Shown piece by piece: positions 47,598 through 64,000 of a stretch of 64,000 nucleotides of DNA. The DNA comes from Candidatus Binatia bacterium (GTDB lineage Bacteria > Desulfobacterota > Binatia > UBA9968), in the NCBI GenBank assembly GCA_036504975.1, contig DASXUF010000105.1, forward strand, positions 67,728-131,727, written 5' to 3'. Below the pieces are notes generated by a model that worked only from the letters and a program-made list of their open reading frames with translations, ran no database searches and was not told the origin of the DNA. Numbering within the stretch: position 1 is the first letter of the stretch; each line of letters begins with the position of its first letter. The position numbers and the translations under genes are program-made.

Positions 47598-47758
47598 CTT
47601 TTAACGGAGGCCGGGTGTTGCCGACGAATAAGTTGCATGATTTTTTAAAGTTCTGGAAGTGAAAAAGCGGTAACGAAACGCCTTCGGCCGATTTAATACG
47701 ACGGAGACGAGGATAAGCTGGTGCCCGGTGATGAAGGGGATACGGGTTGCTTCGGGCA

Positions 47759-48013
47759 TTATACGATAACCGTATAGCCTTCAGGAGCAACCGGTCCGGC
47801 AAAGAAAACGTAGGTCATCTTTTGAGGATTTCGCTCGCCAAAGCCACGGTTTACTTCCACCAGGTCCCGGCGGTTGTGGCTATGATCCAACACACGGCCA
47901 AAAAGAGGGCCTCTAACCTTGTCAACTTCTGTGACCTCAACGAGAACCCACTCGTTGGGATATCGCTGCTCGATTTCTGCGATGGAAAGCGCTTCCCCAA
48001 ATTTAGATTTCAT
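47759..48013 (-). CDS. Small hypothetical protein (84 aa)
   Basis: ATG start; no assignable domain. Confidence 0.4.
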   Translation of the reverse strand: MKSKFGEALSIAEIEQRYPNEWVLVEVTEVDKVRGPLFGRVLDHSHNRRDLVEVNRGFGERNPQKMTYVFFAGPVAPEGYTVIV

Positions 48014-48130
48014 GGCTTCAAAAATTATACCACGATATCTTCAAAGGCAAGGCGGCTCTGGGAAGACCTTTTTGCCTCTCAAGGCCCAGAGGCGTGATCA
48101 CCTGAATCCTCTTTGTATTCTCCAAGCGCT

Positions 48131-48198
48131 AAGTCTTTTAATCTTCCCTCTCAGCGCCTCGGCAGTGAGATATCCGATTTCACCGCAGAGACACGGAG
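48131..48198 (+). repeat. Structured repeat R4 (AAGTCTTTTAATCTTCCCTCTCAGCGCCTCGGCAGTGAGATA...TTCACCGCAGAGACACGG)
   Basis: Colinear with R1, with paired substitutions in the predicted stems. Confidence 0.6.
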
Positions 48199-48209
48199 TT
48201 TGCAGAGAG

Positions 48210-49043
48210 TTAGTGGAGACGCGCGGCGTTTTTTCTGAGGTTCTCGACCTGCCTGAGTATCTCGTCCGCGTCGGCTGCCTCGGGGGCGAGTCTGAGATAC
48301 GTCTCAAAGTCATCGATCGCTTGGGAAAAGTGTTCGAGCTTAAGATAGAGCAAGCCGCGGTCGCGGATCTCTTGGGGCGAAGTCGGATCGATGATCACCA
48401 GACGCTCGGCCGTGGAGAGGGCTTTGGGGAAATCTTCCCGGCGCAGATAGATCGCCTTCAAGTTGTTCAGCATCCGCTGGATAATGTCTCTAGTCGATAC
48501 CGGCGCGAGAAAATCAGGGTGGAAGGCGACCTTGCCGCCGTAGAGACGGTCGAGCATTCCTTGCAGCTCATCGGCCGTGCGAACTTCGCCGTTGTCGAAA
48601 GGGTCAATTACAATCTCGCCTTCGTCGCCGACGTACTTGACCAGAAAATGACCCGGGAAACCGATACCGTGCAGTTTTAGCTCGACCCTTCTGGCTACCT
48701 CCATATATAGGACGGAGAGCGTGATCGGTATGCCTTTCCGGCGCTCGATGACGTCGTTCAAAAAGCTATTTCTGGGATCGTAATAATCGTCCCGGTTGCC
48801 GCGATAGCCTTCTTGGGTAAAGAGGACCTGATTGAGGCAGGCGATCAGACGATAGGGGCTGTTTTCTCCAGCCGAGCGGTCGCGAGCCACAGCCGCAAGC
48901 TGATCCATCCGCGAGAGATACGTCTCGATCCGCAGGTCCGGATAGGTTTCCTGAGCGATGGCCAGAGCCGCGCGCCCGAGGTCGATCTTGTCGTCCGGAA
49001 GCGCAACGGCCGCGCGAAAATTCCTGTGGCGATCGTCCGCCAT
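48210..49043 (-). CDS. SirB1/YchA-like transglutaminase-like + TPR protein
   Basis: GIPITLSVLYMEVARRVELKLHGIGFPGHFLVKY resembles SirB1-family core; 277 aa. Confidence 0.6.
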   Translation of the reverse strand: MADDRHRNFRAAVALPDDKIDLGRAALAIAQETYPDLRIETYLSRMDQLAAVARDRSAGENSPYRLIACLNQVLFTQEGYRGNRDDYYDPRNSFLNDVIERRKGIPITLSVLYMEVARRVELKLHGIGFPGHFLVKYVGDEGEIVIDPFDNGEVRTADELQGMLDRLYGGKVAFHPDFLAPVSTRDIIQRMLNNLKAIYLRREDFPKALSTAERLVIIDPTSPQEIRDRGLLYLKLEHFSQAIDDFETYLRLAPEAADADEILRQVENLRKNAARLH

Positions 49044-49094
49044 TCAAATTTCCTCTCATTTAGCCGATCATTAACTAAAATTTTTCCGTTTACG

Positions 49095-49340
49095 TCATTT
49101 GGGATGAGATCGAATGTTGAGCAAGTAATAAATATCGCCCTCAATTCGAAAATAAAAACGCCAATCGCCGTTTACCCGAGCCTGCCAGATGTCTTGGGCC
49201 TCATCGTATTTCTTAGCACGAAGTGAGGGGTGGCGCATGTTTTGGAGCAAAAGAGCCGCTTGTTTTTGAAAGAGCTTTTGAATATGCGGTGGGGCTTTGG
49301 CATAACTCCGTAAGAACTGCGGAGCGTAGTCGAGACGCAT
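49095..49340 (-). CDS. ParE/RelE-family toxin (type II TA)
   Basis: 81 aa; ...WQARVNGDWRFYFRIEGDIYYLLNIRSHPK matches the RelE/ParE C-terminal fold motif; ATGA overlap with the upstream antitoxin. Confidence 0.7.
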   Translation of the reverse strand: MRLDYAPQFLRSYAKAPPHIQKLFQKQAALLLQNMRHPSLRAKKYDEAQDIWQARVNGDWRFYFRIEGDIYYLLNIRSHPK

Positions 49341-49609
49341 TAGGCGGATTTCTTTTTGAGTTTCCTGACCTCTCGATGTAACGATCGAACCAAGGACTTA
49401 GCGGAGTTAAAGGGGCCGTAGGTTTTCCCCTCCTTGACCTCCTTGACGGCCTGGGCCAGCTCTCGATCAAGCATAGCCTTTGGCGCAAGAGTAATTTTTT
49501 TTCCCTCTACTGTCGCCTCTAGCAGATCTCCCACAGCCACCTCCGCCTTCTTCCGTATTTCAGCGGGCAGGGTTACTTGGTATTTCTCTTTGACTTTTAC
49601 CAACGCCAC
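49340..49609 (-). CDS. AbrB/MazE/SpoVT-type (swapped-hairpin) antitoxin
   Basis: MALVKVKEKYQVTLPAEIRKKAEVAVGDLLEATVEGKKITLAP. Confidence 0.7.
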   Translation of the reverse strand: MALVKVKEKYQVTLPAEIRKKAEVAVGDLLEATVEGKKITLAPKAMLDRELAQAVKEVKEGKTYGPFNSAKSLVRSLHREVRKLKKKSA

Positions 49610-49702
49610 CGTGATTCCTCCATAATTACAAAGGAAGAAGTTTGCTTGACTTAGTATATGGTTAATCCAAGGCTTGTCAAATGGCTTACAACGGGCCCTC
49701 GG

Positions 49703-49876
49703 TCACTGATCTGCTGCAAGGCGCTGCAGAGTGGCAAGGCTGATCCGTTCCCCACGAGACAGCGTCTCAGAGATCTTTCTGCCCTCGCGTACGACAGCGT
49801 AAATGATGATGCCGTGAATAATGGCCGCGCCAACCAGAAAAAGGGTGTTAACCCAGACGAGTGTCAGCATTTCCAT
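49703..49876 (-). CDS. Small membrane protein (57 aa, one TM)
   Basis: RBS GGAAGGAG then ATG; MEMLTLVWVNTLFLVGAAIIHGIIIYAVV... Confidence 0.4.
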   Translation of the reverse strand: MEMLTLVWVNTLFLVGAAIIHGIIIYAVVREGRKISETLSRGERISLATLQRLAADQ

Positions 49877-49993
49877 ATTAGCTCCTTCCCCATTCACTCA
49901 CCCCTACTTCCAGCCGGCTAGGTGGCTTGGTCAGTGAAAAATATATCAAGCTTGCCGCACTCTTACAAAGTCAGCGCAAAACAAATCAATTTC

Positions 49994-51772
49994 TCAGCGC
50001 GGCTCGGCGATCACGTCAACCAGCGCCGGGAGTTTTTTCTCCTTGACAAATTTCAGGGCGCGCTCGATCGCCGGGCGAACGTCGGCCGGGTTCGCGATCG
50101 GCCCCTCGGCGTGGACGCCGAAGCCCTCGGCGATTTTTGCGAAATCCACCGCCGGATCGTCGACGTGCGTGCCGATGCCGGCGTTTTCGACCGGCCGCTT
50201 GCGGAACTTGGCGACCTCGATACCGTGCTCTTCCGAATTGTAGAAGGACTGGTTGTTGTGCATGACGATGAGCAGTGGAATTTTGTGCTTGGCCGCCGTC
50301 CAGAGCGAGCTCGAAGTCATCAACAGGTCGCCGTCCGCTTGGATGTCAATCGATAGTTTGCCGCTGTCTTTCAGTGCCAAGGCCGCGCCGATCGCAGCGC
50401 CCGAGCCGTAGCCCACGCCCGCCCCACCGCTGGCGCCGAGATATTGATTGGGCTTGGTGAAGTCCCACAGGCGCCGCGCCCAACCGTTGGACGTGCCGTT
50501 CACCAAAACCCAGTCCTCTTTCTTGATCGCTTCGCCGAGCTCGAGCGCCAGCCACGCCGTCGAAACCTGCTTCAACGAGCTTTTGGCTTCGGCGTCGGCG
50601 CGCCACTTGGCGCGGCGCGTTTTATGCTTTTCTCCCAGCTCTTTTTGCCTGGCTTCGATGCGCCCTTTGTTTTTGCCGTCGCTGCCGAGAAGCTCGCGGC
50701 AGAGGCGCGTCAATTCCGGCACGGCCACCGAGGTGTCGGCGCACATCGGGAGATCCAGCGCCTGCAGCGCGTGATAGTCGCCGGCCCAGGAGTGCACGAG
50801 CATGTCGTTCATCGAGATGCTTACGAGCTTGACGCCGGGCGAAGTGACGTACTCGCACGCCCGGGTTTGTTTGCTGACCGTCGTCAGCGAGCCGTAAAGA
50901 TCCGCCACGTCGAGCGCCAGGATCACATCGGCGTTTTTCAACAACTCCCGCGCGCCGTCGGTCGCGTCCAAGGGATGGGTCGTGGGGAAGTTAAAACGCG
51001 CGCCCTTGTCGACGACCGGAATCGCCAGAAGCTCCGCCAGAGCGACCAGGGCGGGAACCGTCTTCGGGTTGCGGCCGAGCGTGTCGGCGATGATGAGCGG
51101 CGCTTGCGCGTTCACCAGCAACTCGGCCGCTTTGCGTAGCGCTTCCGGATTCGCCTGCATCGGCGCCAGCGGCGCATAGCGCCTGACGTCGGGGATCTCG
51201 AGCTGAGACGTGAGCGCGTCTTCCTGGATGTCGGCATCGTAGTTGATATAGACCGGCGCCATCGGCTCCGTGGTGGCGAGGCGGTAGCCGCGGATGAAAG
51301 AATCCGGCACGTCGGCCAGGGAATACGGCTGGTCGTCCCATTTCACGTAGTCCCGCACCTGGTTGCCCTGCACGAGAGCGGTATGGATCCAATCGATCCG
51401 CGGCCGCCGCCGCTTGGTGTTCATCGGGCCAGTGCCGCCGAGAACCATCACGGGAACCCGGTCGATGTAGGCGTTGAAAATCGCCATGCTCGCGTGCTGC
51501 AGGCCGACCATGTCGTGCGCGATGGCGATCATCGGCTTGCCCTTGGCCTTGGCGTAGCCGTGAGCGACCGCCACCGAAATCTCCTCGTGATTGCAGAAGA
51601 TCACTTCGGGCATGTAGTTGCCGCCGTAGTTGACGATCGAATCGTGAATGCCGCGAAACGTCGCGCCCGGGTTGAAGGCCGCGTACTCGATATCGAAGGC
51701 CTTCATCAAATCGACGATCACGTCGGAGCCGTACTCCGCTCTCTTCTTTTCCACCGGTGCCGCTCTAGCCAC
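49994..51772 (-). CDS. Thiamine-diphosphate-dependent enzyme, acetolactate synthase large-subunit / sulfoacetaldehyde acetyltransferase-like
   Basis: 592 aa with Pyr, central and PP domains (GDG...N TPP motif region ...GSGAAIGAALA...); its 3' end is duplicated at 47379-47597. Confidence 0.75.
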   Translation of the reverse strand: MARAAPVEKKRAEYGSDVIVDLMKAFDIEYAAFNPGATFRGIHDSIVNYGGNYMPEVIFCNHEEISVAVAHGYAKAKGKPMIAIAHDMVGLQHASMAIFNAYIDRVPVMVLGGTGPMNTKRRRPRIDWIHTALVQGNQVRDYVKWDDQPYSLADVPDSFIRGYRLATTEPMAPVYINYDADIQEDALTSQLEIPDVRRYAPLAPMQANPEALRKAAELLVNAQAPLIIADTLGRNPKTVPALVALAELLAIPVVDKGARFNFPTTHPLDATDGARELLKNADVILALDVADLYGSLTTVSKQTRACEYVTSPGVKLVSISMNDMLVHSWAGDYHALQALDLPMCADTSVAVPELTRLCRELLGSDGKNKGRIEARQKELGEKHKTRRAKWRADAEAKSSLKQVSTAWLALELGEAIKKEDWVLVNGTSNGWARRLWDFTKPNQYLGASGGAGVGYGSGAAIGAALALKDSGKLSIDIQADGDLLMTSSSLWTAAKHKIPLLIVMHNNQSFYNSEEHGIEVAKFRKRPVENAGIGTHVDDPAVDFAKIAEGFGVHAEGPIANPADVRPAIERALKFVKEKKLPALVDVIAEPR

Positions 51773-51837
51773 TGTTGAAATCCCCTTTCTGAATCGCAGT
51801 TATTTCTGGAAAGTTCTTTCTCGTCCGACCGTCTTTT

Positions 51838-51882
51838 CCCTCACCCTTCCCTCTCCCGGAGGGAGGTTAGAGTGAGGGTAGG
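51838..51882. repeat. GC-rich hairpin element CCCTCACCCTTCCCTCTCCCGGAGGGAGGTTAGAGTGAGGGTAGG (same family as 7599-7681)
   Basis: Shares the CCCTCACCCTTC(A)CCCTCTCCC core. Confidence 0.55.
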
Positions 51883-51920
51883 ACGCGTGAGTAGAAGAGT
51901 TGAACCGTACTGACGCTTTT

Positions 51921-52817
51921 TTAATCTCGTTTCTGCAACAACCCCCGCTGGTAAAACAATTCCAGCGTCTCCAGCAGATCGCCTTCCCTGCCGCCGGTAT
52001 CCGAGGGCCGGCCGCAATCCAGCGCGGCGATCTGCTCGAGGATTTTTGCCGTCGCGGGGGCGATCACGGCTTCCAATCCGTGATATCGGAAAGTCTGGCG
52101 CAGCTCGCGCATCTCCTCGGCGCGCCGGCCCGCGTGAATCGGCAACGCGGCGATGCTCCCGCCGACCTTGCCGACCAGGCCGGGAAAACTCTCTTCGTAG
52201 CGGCGCATGATTTCCTGCAATAGATCAAACTTCCTGGCGCCGAGCAACAGCTCCGTGAGAAGTCCCTGCAGGCCTTTCGTCAGCCCGGCGTAGACGATCT
52301 TAAAGGCTGAGGCTTGGCCGATTTTTGCGCCGAGCACTTCTATTTTCAGGCCGCACTCCCCGAGTCCGCGCAGCTCTTCGGCCCCGGGGCCGGAGACGTA
52401 GACCGAGGCGCGCGCCAGCTTGGTCGCCGAGCCGATGATGCAGCCGTCGACAAAGGCCGTCTGCGCCGGCGCGAGCGCCTCTGCGACGGCGGCGGCCGTC
52501 ATCGGAGAGATCGCGTTGGCGTCGAGATAGAGACAATCCTTCCTTCCGACCTTTGCCAGCGCCTTGCCGACCTGCGCGGCGATCTTCCGCGCCGCGGAGG
52601 GAACGACGATGGAAACAATGAGATCGGCATCCGAGACCAGCCGCCGAAGCGGCACCGACTCGACGCCGGCGTTCTCCGCCCGTTTTTGCGTGATCTCGCT
52701 CCGGCCTCGAGACGAAGTCAGCACCTCGAGTCCATGTTCCTTCAAAAGCTTGGCCCAGTGATAGCCCATCTCGCCGATGCTCAGGATGCCGATTTTTTGA
52801 AACGCCGCCACCTTCAT
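51921..52817 (-). CDS. NAD(P)-binding oxidoreductase (HIBADH/6PGDH-like Rossmann + DUF1932-like C-terminus)
   Basis: GILSIGEMGYHWAKLL dinucleotide-binding start. Confidence 0.5.
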   Translation of the reverse strand: MKVAAFQKIGILSIGEMGYHWAKLLKEHGLEVLTSSRGRSEITQKRAENAGVESVPLRRLVSDADLIVSIVVPSAARKIAAQVGKALAKVGRKDCLYLDANAISPMTAAAVAEALAPAQTAFVDGCIIGSATKLARASVYVSGPGAEELRGLGECGLKIEVLGAKIGQASAFKIVYAGLTKGLQGLLTELLLGARKFDLLQEIMRRYEESFPGLVGKVGGSIAALPIHAGRRAEEMRELRQTFRYHGLEAVIAPATAKILEQIAALDCGRPSDTGGREGDLLETLELFYQRGLLQKRD

Positions 52818-53941
52818 TCTCCTTTTTTCGGGCCGTTGATAACGTCGATCATCTGCCTGAGGCGCCCGAAGTTGCGTCGGTTAAACGGCACCAGGAGACG
52901 ATTGAGCGCCAAAGTAGCCGGCGGCTCATCCGCTTCTTCGGGCAGTGGGCCGGCCGCGCGAATCTCGCCGCCGGTCAGGATGTCGCGGAAATCACGATTC
53001 AACTTCGCGAGAAGCGAGGGCGTGGGAGAATGAATCAAACGTATCACCGTATCTCGCTTCACGTAGCGGAGCGACTGGTAATTCGAGTAAAAATGCTGGA
53101 TCTCCTTCACCGCTGCCTCCACGTCTTCGACGATCTTGAAAAGAGACAGGTCCTCCTCGCAAATGTAGCCGGCGTCCAGCATGCGCCGGCCGACGAAGTC
53201 TTCCCATTCTCTCCAGTAACCCCGGCCCGGCAGATCGATCATGAGAATCGGCATAATCTGACTTTTCCCCGTCTGCGCCAAGGTCAGCACCTCCGCCGCC
53301 TCGTCGTGCGTGCCGAATCCTCCGGGAAAAAAAACGAAGGCATCCGCTTCTTTAACAAAGACGAGCTTGCGGGTAAAGAAAAAATGAAAGGCGATGAGCT
53401 TGGGATCGCCGCTGATAAACCGGTTGGTCTCCTGCTCGAACGGCAGGTGGATATTGACGCCGAAGCTCTGCTCCCTGCCCGCGCCTTCATTGCCGGCTTG
53501 CATGATGCCGCCGCCGCTCCCCGTAATCACCATGAAGCCTTCTTCGGCCAGCCGGCGCGCCAAGGCTGCCGCCATCTGATAATGCGGGTCTTCTTCCGTA
53601 ACGCGCGCCGAGCCGAAAATGCTCACCTTGCGCACCGAGCGGTGCGGCGCGAAAAGCTTGAAAGCCAGGCGCAGCTCCTTGAGGGTCCGGTTGAAAACCT
53701 TGAGATCGCCGCGGCTGGCGGGACTCTGATCGAGTCTCAGGATCGTTTGCAGCATCTCGGCTACGAGCTCCTCGTTCGGGGAGCCCTCGCTTTGTCGAAG
53801 CCACTCCAGGACCTTGGGCTCGAGCGCGGCTAAGTTCACCCGCTCCCGCCTTCTAGATCGCGGCTTAACTTTTTTTCCGGAATCGTTCTCGACCTTGCTG
53901 CTCATCGTGAAACCATACAGGATCGACGGACCTGAGATCAA
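52814..53941 (-). CDS. LOG-family protein with N- and C-terminal extensions (PpnN-like nucleotide 5'-monophosphate nucleosidase)
   Basis: LOG motifs VSIFGSAR..., PGGFGTHDE. Confidence 0.65.
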   Translation of the reverse strand: MISGPSILYGFTMSSKVENDSGKKVKPRSRRRERVNLAALEPKVLEWLRQSEGSPNEELVAEMLQTILRLDQSPASRGDLKVFNRTLKELRLAFKLFAPHRSVRKVSIFGSARVTEEDPHYQMAAALARRLAEEGFMVITGSGGGIMQAGNEGAGREQSFGVNIHLPFEQETNRFISGDPKLIAFHFFFTRKLVFVKEADAFVFFPGGFGTHDEAAEVLTLAQTGKSQIMPILMIDLPGRGYWREWEDFVGRRMLDAGYICEEDLSLFKIVEDVEAAVKEIQHFYSNYQSLRYVKRDTVIRLIHSPTPSLLAKLNRDFRDILTGGEIRAAGPLPEEADEPPATLALNRLLVPFNRRNFGRLRQMIDVINGPKKGE

Positions 53942-55054
53942 TCAGCCTTTCAGCGCCAGGACGACCGGCGACTGGGCGCCGATATCTAAAGCTTGAATAT
54001 CCGTAAAGCCGGCGCGCGACAACCATTGCCGATACTCGGAAAAGGTAAAGGTATCTCCCTCGTCGGTCCCGAGCAGAGCGTTCAAGGCCAGCAACAACGG
54101 CATCAGCTCGGTTTTTCTCTCTTCATCGGCAATGTAGTCCATGATCAGGAGCCTGCCGTTTTCCTTCAAAGCCCGGAAACATTTGTCGATAAGCCGCCGG
54201 CTCCATTCCGCTCCTTCGGAATGGCAAATGTGACCGAGCAGCGCCAGATCGTATGCTTCCGTTCCGAAGTCGGTTCTTCTGATGTCGCCGGGGATGAATG
54301 AATACCGGTTCTGGACGCCAAAGTCGCACGCGAACTTCTTCGCAACCTCCAAGACGGGCGGAAAATCTACGGCCGTAACTTCCACCTGTTCGGATTGAAG
54401 CGCGAACGGAAGCGACCACACGGCCGAGCCCGCAGCCACGTCCAGTAATTTGATTTTTTGCCCCTCCAAAGGAAACGTTTTCTCGCAAAGCGCGGCCAGC
54501 TTCCAGGCCGAGTCTTTATGAACGTGGAACAACGCCTCTACGATGTCGAGATTCAGCCGCTCCCGTTCTGGTTCCGGGAGAAGCGGCAGCGCCGGCGCAC
54601 CGGCCTCGACCGCGCCCGGCAATTTGAGCCACAGCTTCAACAGCTGATCCGAGCAAATGAACAGCGAGCCCAGATAATTCTTGCCGGAGGAGAGGAAGTA
54701 GACGCGGGAAAGATCCGTCAGGCCGTACCGGCCGTTTTGTTTTTCTACCAGGCCCATGCCAGCCATACAGTTGAGCAGCATCCTGACTCCTCTTGGCGAG
54801 CACCCGATGGCCGACGCCAAATCATCCGCGTTCCTAGCAGCGTCGCCAACCGCCTCGAAAACGCCCAGCTTCAACGCCGTGAATAGCACCGCCTGCGGCG
54901 CAAAATAAAAACCCAGCTCATCCAGAGTCCCTCTCGCCAACGTATCGGCAATCGCGATCATGGCTTTTCTCCTTTCAGGAGCGAGCACAGGGGGCGAGTT
55001 GCTGCGGCCGATCACGTTGAGATAAGTTGTCTCTGCCGCTGTATCACCGCCCAC
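53942..55054 (-). CDS. Class I SAM-dependent O-methyltransferase (dimerisation domain + OMT domain)
   Basis: LLDVAAGSAVWS (motif I), LLIMDYI region; ~370 aa plant/bacterial OMT architecture. Confidence 0.65.
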   Translation of the reverse strand: MGGDTAAETTYLNVIGRSNSPPVLAPERRKAMIAIADTLARGTLDELGFYFAPQAVLFTALKLGVFEAVGDAARNADDLASAIGCSPRGVRMLLNCMAGMGLVEKQNGRYGLTDLSRVYFLSSGKNYLGSLFICSDQLLKLWLKLPGAVEAGAPALPLLPEPERERLNLDIVEALFHVHKDSAWKLAALCEKTFPLEGQKIKLLDVAAGSAVWSLPFALQSEQVEVTAVDFPPVLEVAKKFACDFGVQNRYSFIPGDIRRTDFGTEAYDLALLGHICHSEGAEWSRRLIDKCFRALKENGRLLIMDYIADEERKTELMPLLLALNALLGTDEGDTFTFSEYRQWLSRAGFTDIQALDIGAQSPVVLALKG

Positions 55055-55079
55055 CCTAACGCGGAATGGAGGAAACCAG

Positions 55080-55709
55080 ATGAAATACTACGACATATCT
55101 CTCAACTTGTCAGCGGATACCGTCCGCTGGATCACCTCTATACCTTTCGAGCTGCATGAGCGCCGCCGCATTGCCCGGGGAGACTCCAGCAATTCGTCGG
55201 CGGTGACCATGAGCCTCCACTCCGGCACGCACATGGATGCGCCGTTTCATTTCGCCCCGGACGGAGCCACGATCGACAATTTGCCGTTGGATTTGTTCAT
55301 CGGTCCGGCCCTGGTGCATGAGGTTGAAACCGAGCGATACATCAAAGCCGAACACGTCAAAGCTATTGAGCTTGATGGAATTACCCGCGTCCTCTTCAAG
55401 ACATGCAATTCCGAACTTTTAAAGCGCGGCAGCTACGATCCCGATTTCGTCGCCTTTTCCGTTAAGGCGGCCGAAGCCTTGGTGGCAAAGGGAGCGAAGC
55501 TGGTGGGACTGGATTTCCTTTCAGTCGCGCACGCCGGAGACGAGCAAGTCATGGTGCACAGGGCATTTCTCGATCGCGGCGTGGCACTATTGGAAGGGAT
55601 CGACTTGTCCGCGGTTAGTCCCGGTCGCTACGAGCTGATTTGCTTTCCGATCAAAGTCCGCGGCGCCGACGGCGCGCCATGCCGGGCCGTACTACGGGAA
55701 GTCTCGTAA
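55080..55709 (+). CDS. Cyclase-family protein (kynurenine formamidase-like)
   Basis: HSGTHMDAPFHF metal-binding motif. Confidence 0.7.
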   Translation: MKYYDISLNLSADTVRWITSIPFELHERRRIARGDSSNSSAVTMSLHSGTHMDAPFHFAPDGATIDNLPLDLFIGPALVHEVETERYIKAEHVKAIELDGITRVLFKTCNSELLKRGSYDPDFVAFSVKAAEALVAKGAKLVGLDFLSVAHAGDEQVMVHRAFLDRGVALLEGIDLSAVSPGRYELICFPIKVRGADGAPCRAVLREVS

Positions 55710-55830: not shown

Positions 55831-57681
55831 ATGAACAAACCCGATACAGCTATGCCTTTCATTGCTCGAGTTCATGAGACAAGTCCTTTCCCCGCGCAAT
55901 TATCCATCCATGATGTACTTGAGGCCTGGGCCGAGCGAACCCCCGGTGTGATCGCTATCGCCGCTCCCGGCCGTGCTCCTCTCACTTATGGCCGTTTACG
56001 TGTTCACATCGACGATGTGGTTCAGACGCTTAAGACGATGGGTATACGCCGCGATGACCGGATTGCCATCGTGCTTCCCAACGGCCCTGAAATGGCCGTC
56101 GCCTTTCTCTCAGTCGCCGCATACGCAACTGCGGCGCCGCTAAATCCTGCCTTAAGAGAAAAGGAATTTGACTTTTATCTTTCCGATCTCGGGGCCAAGG
56201 CGTTGATGGTTCATTCGGAAATGGACACTCCGGCTCGATCCATAGCCGAGGCGCGCGGCATTCCCGTCTTTGAGCTCTCTCCGGTGCCGACCTCAGAGGC
56301 GGGAATCTTTACGCTCAGCGGCCAAGAGAACTCGACTCCAGAGGGCGCCGATTGGCCGGCGCCCGAACACGTAGCGTTGGTGCTGCACACTTCAGGGACG
56401 ACTTCCCGCCCCAAGATGGTCCCGTTGACGCAGAAAAACCTGTGCGCTTCGGCTTATCACATTGCGTCCACGCTGAATCTGAGATCCGAAGATCGTTGTC
56501 TTAACGTCATGCCGCTTTTTCATATTCATGGGATTGTGGGAGCCGTTTTTTCGTCTCTGATGGCCGGGTCGAGCGTGGTGTGCGCCCCAGGCTTCGACCT
56601 GGAGAAGTTTTTCGCATGGCTGGAAGAGTCTCGGCCAACCTGGTACACGGCCGTGCCCGCCATTCATCAAGCGATCCTATCGCGAGCCGAAGATCACCTG
56701 GCAACGGTTCGGCGGAGCAACTTACGGTTTATTCGCTCGTCGTCGGCTGCGCTTCCGGTAAAGTTGATGAAAGAATTGGAAGCGCGATTCGGAGTACCCG
56801 TCATCGAAGCCTACGGAATGACCGAAGCGGCTCATCAAATTGCGAGCAATCCGCTGCCGCCGGGCAAGTGCAAGCCCGGCTCCGTAGGCGTGGCGGCCGG
56901 TCCGGAAGTCGCAGTCATGCACGAAGCAGGAGGATTGCTCGCACCGGGAGAGCGCGGTGAAATCGTTTTGCGCGGCCCCAACGTCACTCACGGGTACGAC
57001 GATAGCGGCGGCGCCACCGCCGAGGCGTTCACCAACGGCTGGTTTCGAACCGGGGATCAGGGATACATGGACGAAGAGGGCTATCTTTTTATCACGGGCC
57101 GCCTCAAAGAAATGATCAACAAGGGGGGGAAAAAGATTTCCCCGAAAGAAGTCGACGATGTTTTGCTGAACCATCCCGGAATCGTCCGGGCGGCGGTGTT
57201 CGCCGTGCCGCATCCGACTCTGGGGGAAGATGTCGCCGCAGCGGTGGTCGTGCGAGATAAGACGCAGACCACGGAAGCCGCAATCCGGGAATATCTTTCC
57301 GGTCGTTTGGCCGAATTCAAAATCCCCAGCCGGGTTTTGATACTTGATGACATACCCGAAAGCGGGCCGGGTAAAATACGGCGAATCGGGTTGGCCGAGG
57401 CACTCATGCCGCAGCCTGCCGGCCAGTTCGTTGCGCCCAAGGACGATCTGGAGGCGGCGGTGGCGAAAATCTATGCGGTCGTGCTCGGCGCTGAAGCGGT
57501 CGGCGCCAGCGACAATTTTTTTGCGTTGGGCGGCGATTCCCTGAGGGCGACCCAGGTTCTGTCGCGCATTCGAGCGACTTTCGGCGTAAACTTGTCGATC
57601 GCGACGATTTTCCGGAAAGCGACGGTTGAGGATTTGGCGCACGAGATCCGTCGGGCGATGGATGCAACGGAGCAAAAATAA
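55831..57681 (+). CDS. Stand-alone adenylation-carrier didomain (acyl-activating enzyme + C-terminal PCP), A domain resembling oxalate-CoA ligase (AAE3/Pcs60-type)
   Basis: HTSGTTSRPKMVPLTQKNL, GYGMTEA, GWFRTGD, GRLKEMINKGGKKISPKEVD; carrier motif FFALGGDSLRATQ. Confidence 0.75.
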   Translation: MNKPDTAMPFIARVHETSPFPAQLSIHDVLEAWAERTPGVIAIAAPGRAPLTYGRLRVHIDDVVQTLKTMGIRRDDRIAIVLPNGPEMAVAFLSVAAYATAAPLNPALREKEFDFYLSDLGAKALMVHSEMDTPARSIAEARGIPVFELSPVPTSEAGIFTLSGQENSTPEGADWPAPEHVALVLHTSGTTSRPKMVPLTQKNLCASAYHIASTLNLRSEDRCLNVMPLFHIHGIVGAVFSSLMAGSSVVCAPGFDLEKFFAWLEESRPTWYTAVPAIHQAILSRAEDHLATVRRSNLRFIRSSSAALPVKLMKELEARFGVPVIEAYGMTEAAHQIASNPLPPGKCKPGSVGVAAGPEVAVMHEAGGLLAPGERGEIVLRGPNVTHGYDDSGGATAEAFTNGWFRTGDQGYMDEEGYLFITGRLKEMINKGGKKISPKEVDDVLLNHPGIVRAAVFAVPHPTLGEDVAAAVVVRDKTQTTEAAIREYLSGRLAEFKIPSRVLILDDIPESGPGKIRRIGLAEALMPQPAGQFVAPKDDLEAAVAKIYAVVLGAEAVGASDNFFALGGDSLRATQVLSRIRATFGVNLSIATIFRKATVEDLAHEIRRAMDATEQK

Positions 57682-57696: not shown

Positions 57697-59351
57697 GTGA
57701 TGAAGACAAAACCGAGCACTGACGCGCGTGACGGGCACGCACTGGTCGCTGAAACATTAAAAGCGCTGGGCGTCACTCATGTCTATTGTGTCTCAGGCAC
57801 CCCAATCCGCGAAACCTTCGCCAAGTGCGCGCAACTGGGCGTCCGTCCAATCGGCGTGCATCATCAGCAAGCGGGCGTCATGATGGCCACCGCCCAGAAT
57901 TACGCGACCGGCCGATTGACGGCCGTGGCGATAGTTTCGGCCGGCCCTGCCGTGACCAACGCAGCGACCGGCATTCTGGTTGCTAAGGACAATTGTTGGC
58001 CGGTGGTGGTGCTGGGCGGGCGGCGGCCGTTGAGCATGCAGGGTATGGGTTCCTTCCAGGAGTTGGACGGCGCGGCGTTATACCAATCCATAACGAAGTG
58101 GTCCGCGCTCGTGGAAACCACATCGAGCATCCCGGCCTATCTCGACCGCGCGTTCAAGTTGGCGATGTCCGGGCGGCCCGGACCCGTCTATCTCGATCTG
58201 CCGGAAGACATGTTGACGGGATTTGCCCGCGTCACCGATCCTTTTTTTCCCGACCCGCCTCAACCTCCACCGCCGAATACCGATTCGACCCAGCGAGCGG
58301 CCGACATCCTGCTGCAAGCGAACCGCCCGGCAATCATTATCGGTAAAGGTGTTCGCTGGTCCCGGCCCGGCGAGGAGGTGCGGCGGTTAGTCGACGAGTT
58401 TGGCATTCCATTTATCACTTCACCGATGGGCCGAGGCTACCTGCCCGACGACCACCCGCTTTGCTGTAACGACGCGCATCGTCTTATAGTCTCAAAGGCA
58501 GATGCCATCCTCCTGATCGGAGCAAGGCTCGACTGGACGTTTCGCTTCGGCAGCGAATTCGCTCGTGACGCCAAACTCATTCAGATCGATATTCACAAGT
58601 CGGAAATCGGCGTCAACCGTGCCCCGACAGTGGGGATCGAGGGCGATGCCCAAGCAGTTCTTCGGCAGCTATTGGCCGCTATGACGGCGAAGAGTCATGC
58701 GGGCGCCAACGGCGCCTTGGCTTCATGGCATGGAATGCTGGGCGAAGAGCGGACGAGGAAAAGGGGCAAGCTGGATTCACTGATGACAGCGATTCCGTCC
58801 CGATGTCGCCCTACCGGATGTTGAAAGAGATTCGCGACTTTCTTCCGCGCGATGCGATTTCGATACTCGACGGCAATGTGTTTATGGCGGCGGGGCAACA
58901 GGTGCTGCCGTCTTATTTGCCGGCTTCCCGTTTTACTGCGGGGAATAACGGGTGCCTGGGAGTGGGTATACCCTTCGGCGTCGGCGCGAAGCTCGCCTGT
59001 CCAAATCGTCTCGTTGTCTCAATTTGCGGCGACACGGCGTTCGCATTTAATGCCATGGAAATGGAAACTGCGGTGAGACACAGGATTCCATTGGTCGTCG
59101 TTGTGGTCAACAATGACGGTAATACCGGAGCACTTATGGAACAGTCCTATTCCCCCTGCAGTGAGGAGCGCGTAACGATGTACCAACCCGGCATCCATTA
59201 CGAAGCCGTCATGAGCGCTTTCGGCGGCCATGCCGAATTCGTGGCTCGTCCCGCCGAGCTCCGACCGGCGCTGGAGCGCGCGGTAGCATCCGGCAGAGCG
59301 GCTTGCATCAACGTGCAGGTCGATCCTCACGAGCGCTACCCGCAGGAATAG
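57697..59351 (+). pseudogene. Oxalyl-CoA decarboxylase / 2-hydroxyacyl-CoA lyase-like TPP enzyme, reading frame broken near 58760-58800 (possibly a sequencing error)
   Basis: ORF 57697..58824 carries Pyr + middle domains (SGRPGPVYLDLP). ORF 58725..59351 carries the PP domain (GDTAFAFNAMEMETA...NNDGN) in another frame. Confidence 0.6.
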
Positions 59352-59419: not shown

Positions 59420-62400
59420 ATGGAAAATCAGTTCATACCTCGCATAGTCAACCGCGACTCGGTTCCCTTGTCGTTTGCCCAGCAGCGGCTCTGGTTTTTG
59501 GACCAACTGGAACCTGACAACCCGCTTTATAACGTCCCAACGGCCCTGCGGTTAAGCGGCAAACTGAGTGTAGAACTCCTGCGAAGATCGCTTGACGCTA
59601 TCGTAGCGCGACATGAAGCGCTGCGGACAACCTTTGTTCCGCTGGACGGAATCCCCGTACAGGTGATCGGCGCATACCGGCCCGTGGAACTTACGGTGAT
59701 CGACCTTGCCCAGGGGTCGCCTTCCGAACGCGAGGCGAAGCTGCGGCTTGCGCTCAAGGAAGAATCGCGCCGGCCTTTTAAGTTGTCCGCGGATTTGATG
59801 TTGCGCGCGACCTTGGCCCGGTTGGACGACGATGATCACGTATTGCTCCTGGTGATGCACCATATTGCGTCCGACGGCTGGTCTCGCGAGATTCTCTTTC
59901 ATGAGCTCGCCGTCCTGTACAGGGCCTTCGCGGAAGGCAAACCGGAACCCCTGCCCGAGCGGCCCATCCAGTATGCGGACTTTGCAGTCTGGCAGCGCGA
60001 GCGGCTGCAGGGCAAAATTCTAGAGGACCAACTCTCTTACTGGAAGCAACGGCTCGCGGGCCTGACAGTCCTCGATCTTCCCATCGACCATCCGCGCCCG
60101 GCGGTTCAGAGCTTCCGCGGCGCGCGTCAATCGTTTGCGCTGCCCAAAGCCCTCTGTGACGAGCTTAAAGCGTTCAGTCGCCGCCAAGGATTGACGCTGT
60201 TCATGACGCTGCTGTCGGCCTTTCAAGTCCTGCTGCATCGCTACACGGGACAGGATGATATTGTCATCGGCTCGCCGATCGCGGGTCGCACCCGCGCTGA
60301 GATCGAAGAGCTGATCGGGCTGTTTATCAATACGCTGGTTTTGAGAGGCGACTTGTCGGGCGATCCCAAATTCACGGAGCTGCTGGCTCGCGTGCGCCAA
60401 GCGGCCCTAGAGGCTTACGAACACCAAGAGCTGCCGTTTGAGAAATTAGTAGAGGAGTTGCGTCCCGAGAGAGATCCGAGCCGCTCTCCGCTGTTTCAAG
60501 TGATGTTCGTCTTGCAGAATATGCCAAGGACAGCCCTGGAGCTGGCAGGCGTTACAGTGACTCCTCTAGAGGTAGACAGCGGGACCGCTAAATTTGATTT
60601 GACGCTGTCGATGGCGGAGCAAGCCGGCCTACTCAGAGCGACGTTGGAGTACAGCGCCGATCTATTTGAAGAGGCTACCATCGAGCGGATGGCCGGGCAC
60701 TTTCAAACCTTGCTCGAAGGGATCGTGAGGAATCCGGATCAGCGCCTCTCCGAGTTGCGGATACTGACCGAAGCGGAGCGGCATCGAATACTCATAGAGT
60801 GGAACGATACGAAGAGAGATTATCCGACGGACAAGTGCATTCACGAACTCTTCGAGGAGCAGGTGGAGCGGACTCCCGACGCGGTGGCGGTGGTCTTTCC
60901 TTCGACGGGCTCAGGACAGAGCGAGGACCGACAACTCACTTACGGGGAATTGAATCGCCGGGCCAATCAGTTGGCGCACTATCTTAAGAAGCGCGGCGTG
61001 GGTCCGGAAGCGCTGGTCGGTCTTTGCGTCGAGCGCTCTTTGGAGATGGTGGTGGGACTGCTGGGAATTCTCAAGGCCGGCGGGGCGTATCTGCCGCTGG
61101 ATACGAGCTCTCCCAACAAGCGTCTCGCGTTCATTTTGCAGGATGCTCACATAGCGGTGTTGTTGACTCAGCGGCGACTGGCCGAAGGGCTTTCCGACGA
61201 GGTGAGGCATACGATCTGCCTCGATACGGATTGGCAGGCCGTCGCCCGGGAGAGCGATGCGAACCCGGTCAGTTCCACAAAAGGAGAAAATCTCGCCTAC
61301 GTGATCTATACCTCAGGCTCCACGGGAACACCCAAGGGAGTCCTGGTTGAGCATCGACAGATTCTCAACTATGTCAAAGGCATCTCGGATCGCTTGCACC
61401 TGGAGCCCGGCGCCGGCTTCGCTATGGTTCAACCGCTTTCCGTGGACTCGAGCCAGACGGTTATTTTCCCCGCATTAATTTCAGGTGGCTGTCTCCATGT
61501 GATATCCGAAGACAGAGCTGCTGACCCGCGGGCACTCGGCGACTATTTTCGCCGCTTTCCCATCGATCTGCTTAAGATCGCTCCGTCCCATCTGGCTGCC
61601 CTGCACATCTCGTCCCCTCCCGAGCGACTCTTGCCGCGTCGTTGGCTGGTGCTCGGCGGGGAAGCTTCTCGGCGGGATTGGGTAGAGAATTTGCGACCGC
61701 TGACCCGCTGCTCCACGTTCAACCACTACGGCCCGACGGAAGCGACAGTAGGCGCGCTCACGTTCGCGATAGGAAGGGAGCAAAGTGACCACGCTTCTTC
61801 AACGGTTCCGATAGGACGCCCTCTCCCTAATATTCACGTCTATATATTGGACCCCCACGGGCAACCATTGCCGGTCGGGATTCCCGGCGAGTTGCACATC
61901 GGCGGTAGTGGTGTGACCCGAGGTTATCTCAACAGGCCTGAGCTGACGACGGAGAAATTTATCCCCAACCCTTTCAGCGACGAGCCGGGCGCGCGCCTCT
62001 ATAAGAGCGGAGACGTGGCGCGTTATCTCCCTGACGGGAACATCGAGTTCCTCGGTCGCGCCGACCACCAGGTTAAGATCCGTGGCTTCCGCGTCGAGCT
62101 GGGGGAGATCGAGGCGGTGCTCGGCCAGCATCCGGACGTGCGGGATGTGACGGTTTTGGCTCGGGAAGATATCCCCGGCCGGCAGCGCCTGGTAGCCTAT
62201 ATCGTCGCCAACAAGGAGCGCGCGCCCACAACCGGCGGCAGGCAGCGCTATAGGCTGCCGAATCATATGGCTGTGGCGCAGTTAAATAAGTACGAGACCG
62301 ACTATATCTACGAAGAAATATTCGAGCGCCAGGCGTACCTCAAGCATGGGATTGCGATTCGTGAAGGGGATTGCGTCTTCGATGTGGGGGCAAATATCGG

Positions 62401-64000
62401 CCTGTTTACCATCTTCGTGCGGCAAATGTGTAAAACCGCCAGGGTATACGCCTTTGAGCCGAATCCTTTTGCCTTTGAGATATTGAGCCTGAACGCTTCG
62501 CTCTATGCTCCCGGCGCGAAATTGTTCGATTGCGGCTTATCTAACGAAACCAAGACAGCTTCTTTTACTTTTTTCCCCGGCTTTTCCCTGTTCTCCGGCT
62601 TCTATGCCGACGCGCAGATTGAAAAGGAAGTCGTAAAGACATTCATGCTGAATCAGCAGAAAGCCGGCAAGGCTCATATGGCCGAGCTCTTAGAGCAGGC
62701 CGACGGCATACTCGACGAGCGGTTTTCGCCTACCACCCTGCCCGTTCGGTCGAGAACTCTTTCGGCCGTGATGGAGGAGGAGGGCGTTGAATGCATAGAT
62801 CTCTTGAAGATCAACGCGGAAAAGAGCGAACTCGATGTTCTCAACGGGATCAACGACGTTGACTGGAAAAAGATCAAACAGATCGTCCTGGAGGTCGATG
62901 TTCAGGAAAATCTGCGCGCTATTCTCTCGTTGCTGGAGCGGCAGGGCTATGACTTCATCGTGAAGCAGGATGCGCTGCTTGAGAATACTCAACTCCGCTA
63001 CGTTTATGCGATCCGCCCGTCAGAGGGTAGGCGGCTGGAAAGGAATGCGGAGCGGGCGGAGATTGAGCCGATCCCGATGCTGAGCGATTCTTCGCTTTCT
63101 CCCGACGAGGTGAGGCGCTTTTTAAGAGAGAGGCTGCCCGAACATATGGTGCCCTCCGCGTTGGTCTTTCTCCAGGCTCTCCCGCTGACTCCTCACGGCA
63201 AGGTGGACCGCCGCGCGCTGCCGGCGCCTGAGCAGACGAGACCCGAGCTGGAAAGCTCATACATCACGCCTCGCACGGAGGTCGAGAATGTTCTAGCCGC
63301 GGTTTGGATGAAAGTTCTCAAGCTCGGTCAGGTCGGCATCCATGACAACTTCTTTGATTTAGGGGGGCACTCCCTACTGGCCACCCAAGTCATCTCGCGC
63401 CTGCGTGAGGCTTTCCACGTGGAGACGCCGATGCGCGCGCTTTTTGAATCGCCTACGGTGGCCGGCCTGGCTAAGTACATTGAATCGGTTCGCCAGGAGG
63501 CAACCGGCGCAAGAGCCTTACGTATATTGCCCGAACGAGTTATTCGAGACTATCCGCTATCTTTTTCTCAGGAGCGGTTTTGGTTTCTCAGTCAACTGGA
63601 GCCCAACAACTTAGCTTACAAGGTCACGTTTGGCTTTCACCTCACCGGGCCGTTGAATACCAAGGCTCTAGAGCAATCACTCACGGAGATTGTGCGAAGG
63701 CACGAAACCCTGCGCACGACGTTTCACCTGAGAAACGGCGAACCAGTCCAAGTGATTTCTGAACGATGGTCCTTTCCGTTAACGATTATAGATTTGAGGC
63801 AGCAAACTCCGGTCGATTCAGAAGCAGAAGTCCAACGACTCTTTGAAAACGAGCGTCGACGTTTTTTTGATCTGTCCGTCGACTTGTTGTTGCGAGCTAC
63901 TTTACTGCAACTGGGTGCAGATGAGCATGTTCTGGTTTTAAGCAGTCATCACGTCGCCTGGGATCACTGGTGTATCGAATTATTTTTGTGTGAACTCTCC
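59420..64000 (+). CDS. Non-ribosomal peptide synthetase, 3'-partial: starter C domain - A domain with embedded FkbM-family methyltransferase - PCP - C domain (continues beyond window)
   Basis: Open frame from ATG 59420 to window end. C motifs (HHIASDGW; SHHVAWDHW), A2-A10 (LKAGGAYLPLD, YTSGSTGTPKG, NHYGPTE, GELHIGGSGVTRGYL, KIRGFRVELGEIE, LPLTPHGKVDR), T (DLGGHSLLA). FkbM signature DVGANIGLF...AFEPNP between A8 and A10. Confidence 0.85.
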   Translation, partial: MENQFIPRIVNRDSVPLSFAQQRLWFLDQLEPDNPLYNVPTALRLSGKLSVELLRRSLDAIVARHEALRTTFVPLDGIPVQVIGAYRPVELTVIDLAQGSPSEREAKLRLALKEESRRPFKLSADLMLRATLARLDDDDHVLLLVMHHIASDGWSREILFHELAVLYRAFAEGKPEPLPERPIQYADFAVWQRERLQGKILEDQLSYWKQRLAGLTVLDLPIDHPRPAVQSFRGARQSFALPKALCDELKAFSRRQGLTLFMTLLSAFQVLLHRYTGQDDIVIGSPIAGRTRAEIEELIGLFINTLVLRGDLSGDPKFTELLARVRQAALEAYEHQELPFEKLVEELRPERDPSRSPLFQVMFVLQNMPRTALELAGVTVTPLEVDSGTAKFDLTLSMAEQAGLLRATLEYSADLFEEATIERMAGHFQTLLEGIVRNPDQRLSELRILTEAERHRILIEWNDTKRDYPTDKCIHELFEEQVERTPDAVAVVFPSTGSGQSEDRQLTYGELNRRANQLAHYLKKRGVGPEALVGLCVERSLEMVVGLLGILKAGGAYLPLDTSSPNKRLAFILQDAHIAVLLTQRRLAEGLSDEVRHTICLDTDWQAVARESDANPVSSTKGENLAYVIYTSGSTGTPKGVLVEHRQILNYVKGISDRLHLEPGAGFAMVQPLSVDSSQTVIFPALISGGCLHVISEDRAADPRALGDYFRRFPIDLLKIAPSHLAALHISSPPERLLPRRWLVLGGEASRRDWVENLRPLTRCSTFNHYGPTEATVGALTFAIGREQSDHASSTVPIGRPLPNIHVYILDPHGQPLPVGIPGELHIGGSGVTRGYLNRPELTTEKFIPNPFSDEPGARLYKSGDVARYLPDGNIEFLGRADHQVKIRGFRVELGEIEAVLGQHPDVRDVTVLAREDIPGRQRLVAYIVANKERAPTTGGRQRYRLPNHMAVAQLNKYETDYIYEEIFERQAYLKHGIAIREGDCVFDVGANIGLFTIFVRQMCKTARVYAFEPNPFAFEILSLNASLYAPGAKLFDCGLSNETKTASFTFFPGFSLFSGFYADAQIEKEVVKTFMLNQQKAGKAHMAELLEQADGILDERFSPTTLPVRSRTLSAVMEEEGVECIDLLKINAEKSELDVLNGINDVDWKKIKQIVLEVDVQENLRAILSLLERQGYDFIVKQDALLENTQLRYVYAIRPSEGRRLERNAERAEIEPIPMLSDSSLSPDEVRRFLRERLPEHMVPSALVFLQALPLTPHGKVDRRALPAPEQTRPELESSYITPRTEVENVLAAVWMKVLKLGQVGIHDNFFDLGGHSLLATQVISRLREAFHVETPMRALFESPTVAGLAKYIESVRQEATGARALRILPERVIRDYPLSFSQERFWFLSQLEPNNLAYKVTFGFHLTGPLNTKALEQSLTEIVRRHETLRTTFHLRNGEPVQVISERWSFPLTIIDLRQQTPVDSEAEVQRLFENERRRFFDLSVDLLLRATLLQLGADEHVLVLSSHHVAWDHWCIELFLCELS

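Follow-up and report, generated by a model that had tools for sequence, protein, structure and literature searches.

An FkbM-family methyltransferase inserted in an aspartate-type adenylation domain of a Candidatus Binatia peptide synthetase, and the altered active-site signature of its clade

Introduction

Interrupted adenylation (A) domains of bacterial non-ribosomal peptide synthetases (NRPSs) have been sorted into seven families (Lundy, Mori & Garneau-Tsodikova 2020, PMC8341866). One of these, family 2a, is written A8-Ms(O,Ser/Thr)-A9 and has a type II methyltransferase (M) domain; its representative is KtzH, the same M type occurs in ColG of columbamide synthetase, and ColG is listed alongside KtzH under the family 2a/5a interrupted A domains (PMC8341866). 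This study concerns an interrupted A domain of related build in a 64,000-nucleotide stretch of DNA from a Candidatus Binatia bacterium (contig DASXUF010000105.1, called the window throughout), in which an NRPS gene carries an FkbM-family methyltransferase within its A domain.

Type II M domains are diagnosed by DVGx(N/H)xG, a form of GxGxG with Asn or His for the middle Gly, followed by a conserved acidic E, and the strand at the A/M boundary is diagnosed by L(V/A/I)(A/G)(Y/F)xxx (PMC8341866). The term FkbM is not used by Lundy et al. (PMC8341866), and the link is supplied by Paoli et al. 2022 (PMC9259500). Supplementary Table 5 of that study gives PF05050 matches in MIBiG that include KtzH (O-methyl-Ser), FrsG (N,O-dimethyl-Thr) and the aurantimycin NRPS (O-methyl-Ser), and further matches are AmbE (L-Glu to methoxyvinylglycine), OciA (O-methyl-glycerate) and the stand-alone LptK, which O-methylates Asp in A54145 (PMC9259500).

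What may be unusual in the window is an Asp-type host A domain together with an altered M-domain active site, neither of which was seen in the initial annotation made from the sequence alone. A tentative reading is that the domain belongs to an uncharacterised, widespread subfamily of embedded FkbM domains, marked by an Asn, a missing His and a Phe and tied to Asp-activating A domains, that esterifies the side chain of carrier-bound Asp.

An interrupted adenylation domain with an FkbM-family insert

The forward strand can be translated from 59303 as one uninterrupted frame, and the NRPS gene is open from an ATG at 59420 (MENQFIPRIV...) to 64000, a run of 1527 codons with zero stops (coordinates of all domains and motifs are given in Table 1). 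Condensation (C) domain profile PF00668 matched the whole protein with E 2.1e-165 over two stretches. The adenylation motifs LAYVIYTSGSTGTPKG, NHYGPTE, GELHIGG, YKSGD, A8, A9 and A10 were all found in frame, and the core motifs A3-A10, the above-threshold profiles and the invariant A10 Lys (K1261) identify the region as an NRPS A domain.

The insert could be placed exactly, directly after the strand RLVAYIV and directly before A9, that is, between A8 and A9. The initial annotation had proposed an FkbM-family methyltransferase of about 300 aa inside an NRPS A domain, between A8 and A10, and this was borne out: the whole lies in one open frame, the insert of 309 aa is contiguous with the flanking A motifs, and the motifs it had quoted (KIRGFRVELGEIE, CVFDVGANIGLFTIF, VYAFEPNPFAFEIL, FPGFSLFSG and LPLTPHGKVDR) are all in frame about where it had put them, with the site now refined to A8-A9. 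Scanned by itself (62207-63145), the insert matched PF05050 with 66.6 bits (E 3.9e-18, cut-off 22.7) and TIGR01444 with 87.6 bits (E 1e-24, cut-off 37.7). The remaining matches were weak, sub-threshold or marginal ones of the Trm5/CbiT type to the S-adenosylmethionine (SAM)-binding loop. Models of the N-methyltransferase type (Methyltransf_11/12/23/25/31) gave no Pfam or NCBIfam match at E<=0.1, so that no class I N-methyltransferase model scored better than FkbM, and the insert does not have the features of type I N-methylating (TioS-like) M domains. It does have those of family 2a as far as the M domain itself is concerned: the in-frame position between a8 and a9, the boundary strand (LVAYIVA, aa 924-930), and DVGANIG followed by the E of YAFEPNP. 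The L-Ser- or L-Thr-specific host of that family was not found; the host code here is DSTKVGHVGK, which is Asp-like.

An AlphaFold (AF2) model of the A C-terminal subdomain with the insert had a mean predicted local distance difference test (pLDDT) score of 85.2 and a predicted template modelling (pTM) score of 0.79. In this model the FkbM core is a Rossmann fold of alternating beta and alpha elements (block-mean pLDDT mostly >90, lowest blocks 81), and the predicted fold of the insert is that of a class I Rossmann-like SAM methyltransferase. The top match of the model in the PDB was the TioS interrupted A domain 5WMM (E 9.6e-18; 16% identity over the aligned region), and other structural matches were CbiT, RlmCD and PsiM. 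A sequence search of the PDB for a solved close relative gave a best hit of only E 0.01, to a Trm5/Taw2-like protein. The structural modelling that had been proposed as a check returned a Rossmann methyltransferase. The opposition that the initial annotation had drawn between class I and FkbM-type inserts was mistaken, as FkbM enzymes themselves have the class I Rossmann fold according to the model and its 5WMM match. TioS(A4a-M4-A4b) shares with the window the a8-a9 site and the combination of an A subdomain with a Rossmann methyltransferase; it differs in being type I, in belonging to another methyltransferase family with other motifs, and in methylating the backbone nitrogen. There is very little doubt that the module is an interrupted A domain in the order C-A(M)-T-C (T, thiolation domain), with an FkbM-family class I Rossmann methyltransferase in frame at the A8-A9 loop.

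The architecture is published and abundant

Inserts of the FkbM type had been thought rare when the sequence was first annotated, but this view did not survive comparison with published and genomic data. Family 2a alone was reported with n=149, against n=536 for the N-methylating family 1 (PMC8341866). In a word-indexed search, 923 proteins reached E<=1e-5, and those that matched best (<=64% identity) have PF05050 beside AMP-binding, AMP-binding_C or PP-binding. When 1.84 billion cluster representatives were searched exhaustively with HMMER, 1,735 clusters (50% identity) reached E<=1e-30; among the best 150 of these, nearly all are multi-kilobase megasynthases. Additionally, a scan of one genome per species gave at least 482 confirmed loci, which span Cyanobacteria, Acidobacteriota, Gemmatimonadota, Proteobacteria, Binatia and others. 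The common order in 25 aligned homologues is A8-RLVAYVVP-M-LPxYMVP-A10-T. An assembly artefact or chimera was considered and rejected, as the identical in-frame layout occurs in dozens of independent genomes.

The A8-A9 FkbM-type interrupted architecture is therefore not new, and genome-mining tools and readers should not flag it as such. The first annotation had offered a choice between an unusual on-line methylation step and a novel architecture; the architecture is the published family 2a/type II one, while on-line methylation by the insert is very probable. Some of the megasynthases have two to three copies of the M domain (e.g. P0121, 6402 aa), and several residues of one product may be methylated likewise in these proteins.

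KtzH of kutzneride synthetase and ColG are the closest described counterparts. Both share with the window the a8-a9 insertion and, by the published motifs, the boundary strand, DVGx(N/H)xG and the acidic E; KtzH also shares the PF05050 (FkbM) match. The module logic of adenylating, loading and then methylating on the carrier is likewise the same. Unlike the window with its Asp-type code, both load L-Ser and methylate the Ser hydroxyl.

An Asp-type host code and an altered active site

The specificity code of the host A domain was read from a MAFFT alignment to GrsA-PheA, for which the control gave DAWTIAAICK as expected. The canonical (Stachelhaus) code for Asp is DLTKVGHIGK, in which K278 and H322 are thought to contact the side-chain carboxylate. 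The window code DSTKVGHVGK equals it at 8 of 10 positions, K278 and H322 included, and the relatives in the window clade have the canonical DLTKIGH[IV]G. Host codes were read likewise for 79 genomic loci. Among them were Asp-like DLTK[IV]GH[IV]G (~10 loci), Asn DLTKIGEVG (2), Glu-like D[AT]KDLG[VL]V[DN] (14), Gln DAWQ[FY]GLID (3), Thr DFWN[IV]GMVH (13) and Ser DVWHxSL[IV]D (7), and codes without Asp235 that are not amino-acid-like (SSRDLAMGI at 5 loci, plus others). Relatives in Asp-, Asn-, Glu- and Gln-type modules are thus as frequent as those in Ser/Thr ones, and the window M domain is 41-50% identical to the Ser/Thr-coded embedded relatives.

In a neighbour-joining tree of the M domains, grouping follows the host A-domain code. 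The window clusters with L001-L004, L006 and L010, all of Asp type, and the sister group of this clade is a D-T-K-D-L-G clade. Hosts with Ser (DVWH...) and Thr (DFWN...) codes are found in other clades of this M family. The published Ser/Thr label thus covers only part of the M family, and the M domain has co-diversified with the substrate side chain.

Compared column by column, the window clade departs from every Ser/Thr-coded and TauD-associated relative, and from LptK, OciA and Orf9, at four sites that otherwise vary little. The conserved LLKIDVE has become LLKINxE (LLKINAE in the window, with N1132 directly after beta4), and the His of the conserved EVHD after beta5 is deleted (LEV-D in the window). 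FTxYP has become FTFFP, with F1052 in place of Tyr, and FEPIP has become FEPNP (N1015), a position at which other clades have I, V, L or A. By alignment columns and model strands, the changed sites adjoin the SAM loop, immediately following beta4 and beta5. LptK, OciA, SdnD and Orf9 keep the Asp after beta4, as does each relative that is Ser/Thr-coded or TauD-associated, and its change to Asn is common to the window clade and the sister clade. The Ser/Thr-coded relatives also keep the His after beta5 and the Tyr, unlike the window. Tyr (FT[FYH]YP) is kept by most relatives outside the clade, including LptK, OciA and Orf9, whereas SdnD has Phe. The Asp/His feature of the FkbM members to which hydroxyl O-methylation has been assigned (LptK, OciA, Orf9) is therefore absent from the window.

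The Asn, no-His and Phe states co-occur among 262 independent metagenome proteins, and they are kept in Binatia, Gammaproteobacteria, Burkholderiales and Gemmatimonadales. Asn-signature motifs (LKINVE and similar) do not occur in the MIBiG FkbM table, in which the sequences are partial. Of the metagenome proteins with this signature, 27 include the A domain, and about 20 of these have an Asp-like code, which argues for recognition of the side chain and not of the backbone. This bears on the reading that the domain N-methylates the backbone alpha-amino group to give N-methyl-Asp, as EreM does in a ribosomal peptide pathway. EreM shows the family to be capable of N-methylation, N-methylation is the commonest task of a8-a9 inserts (family 1, n=536), and the loss of a general base would be compatible with an amine nucleophile. 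However, a signature tied to Asp-type A domains and M clades that track the side-chain class are unexpected for a backbone enzyme, and no N-methyltransferase Pfam model matches the insert; backbone N-methylation is thus considered very unlikely.

A probably functional domain

Among the matches listed, the closest relative is L001, from a metagenome-assembled genome (MAG) labelled Deltaproteobacteria bacterium RIFCSPLOWO2_12_FULL_60_19, and the next closest are the Candidatus Binatia MAGs L002 and L003. L001 has 94% protein identity to the window in the M domain, and its DNA identity is ~85%. In the comparison with L001, the ratio of nonsynonymous to synonymous substitution rates (dN/dS) was 0.12 for the M insert and 0.043 for its PF05050 core, compared to 0.26 for the A core and 0.17 for the C domain. 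The M domain is under strong purifying selection.

These values speak to the possibility that the insert is a catalytically dead relic, retained only since the A C-terminal subdomain would be disrupted without it. NRPSs with inactive embedded domains are known, and two family-conserved residues, the Asp after beta4 and the His after beta5, have been lost here. Against this, SAM motif I and the acidic beta2 residue are in place along with all other family-invariant residues, the dN/dS of the catalytic core is the lowest of the domains compared, and the signature is conserved across the four groups named above, all of which makes a relic highly improbable. The M domain is probably a working methyltransferase that acts on an Asp-type residue.

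The proposed methyl acceptor

In the proposed reaction, the embedded M domain would methylate the carrier-tethered residue with SAM prior to the next condensation, and the next C domain would hand the methylated residue on. The methyl acceptor would be a side-chain oxygen. In the window clade this would be the beta-carboxylate, giving Asp beta-methyl ester, in preference to a beta-hydroxyl. The carboxylate of carrier-bound Asp is tentatively favoured on four grounds: a carboxylate needs no general base; the Asp to Asn change removes a negative charge beside an anionic substrate; no hydroxylase accompanies the window clade; and the clade has Asn for Asp, a deleted His, and Phe where the hydroxyl-methylating relatives have Tyr.

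The main competitor is O-methylation of a hydroxyl as in LptK and AmbE, in which an outside oxygenase would beta-hydroxylate the tethered Asp and the M domain would convert it to 3-methoxy-Asp, as in A54145. All characterised FkbM-family O-methyltransferases use hydroxyls, and LptK, to which 3-O-methyl-Asp formation has been assigned, is 37% identical to the window domain (E 1e-51), homologous over the whole catalytic domain, and likewise has an Asp-derived residue in a non-ribosomal peptide as its substrate. LptK differs in that it is free-standing, that a separate hydroxylase installs the 3-hydroxyl, and that it keeps LLKIDVQ and EVHD. AmbE of the Pseudomonas aeruginosa methoxyvinylglycine (AMB) synthetase resembles the window in that an A domain specific for an acidic amino acid, L-Glu, precedes an FkbM methyltransferase and a T domain. 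The Glu that AmbE O-methylates is, however, oxygenated, and AmbE is partnered by two oxygenases of the TauD family, AmbC and AmbD; no such oxygenases were seen in the window. The N-terminal M domain of OciA (cyanopeptolin synthetase) is 47% identical (E 5e-88) and also stands in an assembly line; it acts on a hydroxyl to give O-methyl-glycerate, keeps LKLDAE and EVHD, and is not within an Asp-type A domain. FrsG (FR900359; N,O-dimethyl-Thr) is a further FkbM M domain in an assembly line with a hydroxyl substrate.

TauD and CmlA homologues were screened with tblastn and with a hidden Markov model (HMM) from hits at 15 loci, over all loci and the 64 kb window, TauD genes being counted within 6 kb on either side. 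A SyrP-like TauD was found near 3 of 4 Asp-coded hosts outside the window clade, 2 of 2 Asn-coded hosts and 5 of 8 hosts with the Glu-like code DAKDLGVV[DN], three groups in which M keeps Asp/His, and near 5 of 5 with SSRDLAMGI; at L046 and L054, the TauD-family gene is directly upstream of the NRPS gene. The count was 1 of 7 for Ser-coded hosts (fused into the NRPS) and 0 of 13 for Thr-coded hosts. In the window clade (the full 64 kb of the window, L001-L004, L006, L010 and the 21.6 kb L080) it was 0 of 8, and in the Asn-bearing sister clade 0 of 6. Comparison of acidic hosts with an Asn-type M domain (0/13, being 7 + 6 loci with L080 excluded) with acidic or amide hosts with an Asp-type M domain (10/17) gave a Fisher p of 0.001, a value that overstates independence because the loci are phylogenetically related. 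Neither TauD nor CmlA homologues were found in the 64 kb window by tblastn and HMM, and Pfam scans found no oxygenase in the sizeable open reading frames (ORFs) located between 42 and 59 kb. Among relatives in Asp-, Asn-, Glu- and Gln-type modules, two populations can be told apart by sequence, one that keeps Asp/His and has a TauD hydroxylase and one that has lost Asp/His and has no hydroxylase.

In the window clade, L006 (1530-7913, a Burkholderiales MAG) and L010 (2571-8300, a Gemmatimonadales MAG) have a compact four-gene cassette of phosphopantetheinyl transferase, acyl-CoA dehydrogenase, A(M)-T with an Asp code and the same M signature, and TubC-docking thioesterase, without a hydroxylase. 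The flanks hold unrelated regulators, glycosyltransferases and an immunoglobulin-repeat protein, and the L010 cassette lies amid polysaccharide genes. The product of this cassette would be a small modified-Asp compound. A hydroxyl acceptor is somewhat less likely than the carboxylate in the window clade; against it speak these cassettes, the missing TauD homologues at all 8 members, and the loss of Asp, His and Tyr, three residues retained by LptK, OciA, Orf9 and every TauD-associated relative. In its favour remain the TauD genes that stand directly upstream of the NRPS gene where other hosts of this M type have Asp, Asn or Glu codes, and the incompleteness of the cluster in the window.

Several considerations weigh against esterification. 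To our knowledge, no carboxyl methyltransferase is known in the FkbM family. FkbM enzymes with an assigned natural-product role methylate hydroxyls, with the amide N-methyltransferase EreM as the sole exception (PMC9259500), and Asp would therefore need beta-hydroxylation first. Nothing relevant came from literature searches for embedded NRPS methyltransferases that produce methyl esters of Asp or Glu. The hydroxylase screen covered SyrP-like TauD proteins and one CmlA-like protein, and cytochrome P450, AspH-like and ferritin-like oxygenases would escape it. The cluster runs off the window, so a downstream hydroxylase is possible, and the related loci have just 6-10 kb of flank, filled mostly by NRPS genes. 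The Asp/His pair is presumed to be catalytic on the basis of conservation and strand position. Finally, code position 236 is Ser in the window where the canonical Asp code has Leu, and the substrate could be an Asp analogue.

This last point leads to a further alternative, in which something other than Asp is loaded, either an analogue of it or a different acidic or polar acid, and the target of the M domain is a group particular to this substrate. Besides the Ser at position 236, the thiamine-diphosphate enzymes, dehydrogenase and further O-methyltransferase of the cluster could make an unusual building block, and L080 adds an isocitrate-lyase-family enzyme. However, the agreement with the Asp code includes both K278 and H322, the clade relatives have the canonical code, and no true phosphoenolpyruvate (PEP) mutase that would support a phosphonate was found, so a substrate other than Asp is considered unlikely. 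Phosphonoalanine as an Asp mimic with phosphonate O-methylation, an idea prompted by the PEP_mutase-family gene of L080, was rejected: the protein has the isocitrate-lyase-type EDQKRPRRCGH instead of the PEP-mutase EDKxxxxxNS, and the window has no homologue.

If esterification of carrier-bound Asp is true, the FkbM family would gain its first carboxyl O-methyltransferase and non-ribosomal peptide synthesis its first on-line esterification of Asp, and the known chemistry of the family would widen. The ester could protect or activate, for example by blocking decarboxylation or by enabling later imide or ring formation. Predictions for orphan clusters in Binatia, Acidobacteriota, Gemmatimonadota and Proteobacteria should then add Asp(OMe) or a derived product, and a new module for side-chain modification would become available for the engineering of bifunctional A domains.

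Two other observations were made in the course of the screen. The SSRDLAMGI hosts are five Acidobacteriota loci (L030, L035, L039, L043 and L051) with an FkbM-type insert in A domains without Asp235, and the TauD gene adjoins in 5 of 5. SSRDLAMGI is probably not an alpha-amino acid code, and these loci look like a second uncharacterised type of hydroxylate-then-methylate module. At L001, a 215-aa ORF upstream of the NRPS gene (9-656, minus strand) has only sub-threshold DUF455/MiaE/haem-oxygenase-like (ferritin-like di-iron) matches; the window has no homologue of it.

Coordinates and gene neighbourhood

Table 1. Features of the NRPS gene and its neighbourhood in the window (aa, residues of the NRPS protein)
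Feature	Position	Strand	Basis or remark
NRPS gene, C-A(M)-T-C..., 3' end cut by window	59420..64000	+	open frame; Pfam and NCBIfam domain matches
Condensation domain 1, aa 12-457	59453..60790	+	PF00668
HHIASDGWS motif of condensation domain 1	59858-59884	+	
Adenylation core, aa 478-837, motifs A1-A7	60851..61930	+	PF00501 282.8 bits, TIGR01733 450.3 bits (cut-off 317.4)
A8 motif KIRGFRVELGEIE	62075-62113	+	
AMP-binding_C, split by insert; first half aa 896-933			Pfam
A/M boundary strand RLVAYIV	62186..62206	+	fits published L(V/A/I)(A/G)(Y/F)xxx
Inserted M domain with N- and C-terminal linkers, aa 930-1238, 309 aa	62207..63133	+	PF05050, TIGR01444
FkbM catalytic core, aa 988-1179	62381..62956	+	PF05050 (Methyltransf_21) envelope
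CVFDVGANIGLFTIF, quoted in initial annotation	62372-62416	+	
SAM-binding motif I, DVGANIG, aa 988-994	62381..62401	+	type II DVGx(N/H)xG; invariant among relatives
VYAFEPNPFAFEIL, quoted in initial annotation	62444-62485	+	
YAFEPNP	62447..62467	+	E1013, conserved acidic residue at beta2 end; N1015 clade-specific
FTFFP, with F1052	62564..62578	+	
FPGFSLFSG	62573-62599	+	
Strand beta4 and next loop, IDLLKINAEKSE, with N1132	62795..62830	+	strand from model
Strand beta5, QIVLEVDVQ	62879..62905	+	
Second half of A C-terminal subdomain: A9 LPEHMVPSALVFL and A10 LPLTPHGKVDR	63134..63211	+	
A9 LPEHMVPSALVFL	63134-63172	+	
A10 LPLTPHGKVDR	63179-63211	+	K1261 = code position 517
Thiolation (carrier) domain, PP-binding aa 1291-1354	63290..63481	+	PF00550 63.9 bits
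Phosphopantetheine attachment Ser1318 in FFDLGGHS	63371-63373	+	
Condensation domain 2 start, cut by window end	63527..64000	+	second PF00668 stretch
HHVAWD motif of condensation domain 2	63947-63964	+	
Thiamine-diphosphate enzyme gene just upstream of NRPS	57697-59351	+	two overlapping ORFs: TPP_N+TPP_M, then TPP_C
Stand-alone A-T didomain	55831..57681	+	Pfam; code with His for alpha-amino-binding Asp235
Putative cyclase PF04199	55080-55709	+	
Class I O-methyltransferase with dimerisation domain	53942-55054	-	
LOG/lysine-decarboxylase-like protein	52814-53941	-	
NAD-binding/DUF1932 dehydrogenase	51921-52817	-	
Second thiamine-diphosphate enzyme	49994-51772	-	
Phd/YefM antitoxin gene	47034-47342	-	
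PemK/MazF toxin gene	44687-45001	+	

Upstream of the NRPS gene, the stand-alone A-T didomain probably serves the same pathway as its loading unit, and in L001 an A-T unit is fused to C-A(M)-T-C-A-T. The didomain probably loads a non-amino acid starter, because Asp235 is missing from the code of its A domain. L080 has an A-T gene with 53.5% identity to the didomain, and the order there is A-T, the isocitrate-lyase-family (PEP_mutase-family) gene (1491-2360), a thiamine-diphosphate enzyme and the NRPS. When the thiamine-diphosphate gene next to the window NRPS is aligned to its L080 homologue, the frame changes between 58764 and 58791; this frameshift could stem from a sequencing error, or the gene could be a pseudogene or truly split.

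The genes from 49994 to 55709 are likely the left arm of the gene cluster, and no oxygenase is among them. Further out, the stretch 44000-50000 has a low GC content (0.51-0.55, compared to ~0.60 elsewhere) and holds, besides the toxin and antitoxin genes, a BON/SH3 protein and a transglutaminase-like TPR protein. This stretch is possibly an inserted island that marks the border of the cluster. A radical SAM protein of 758 aa is encoded at 42060-44336 on the plus strand, ~6 kb upstream of the cluster.

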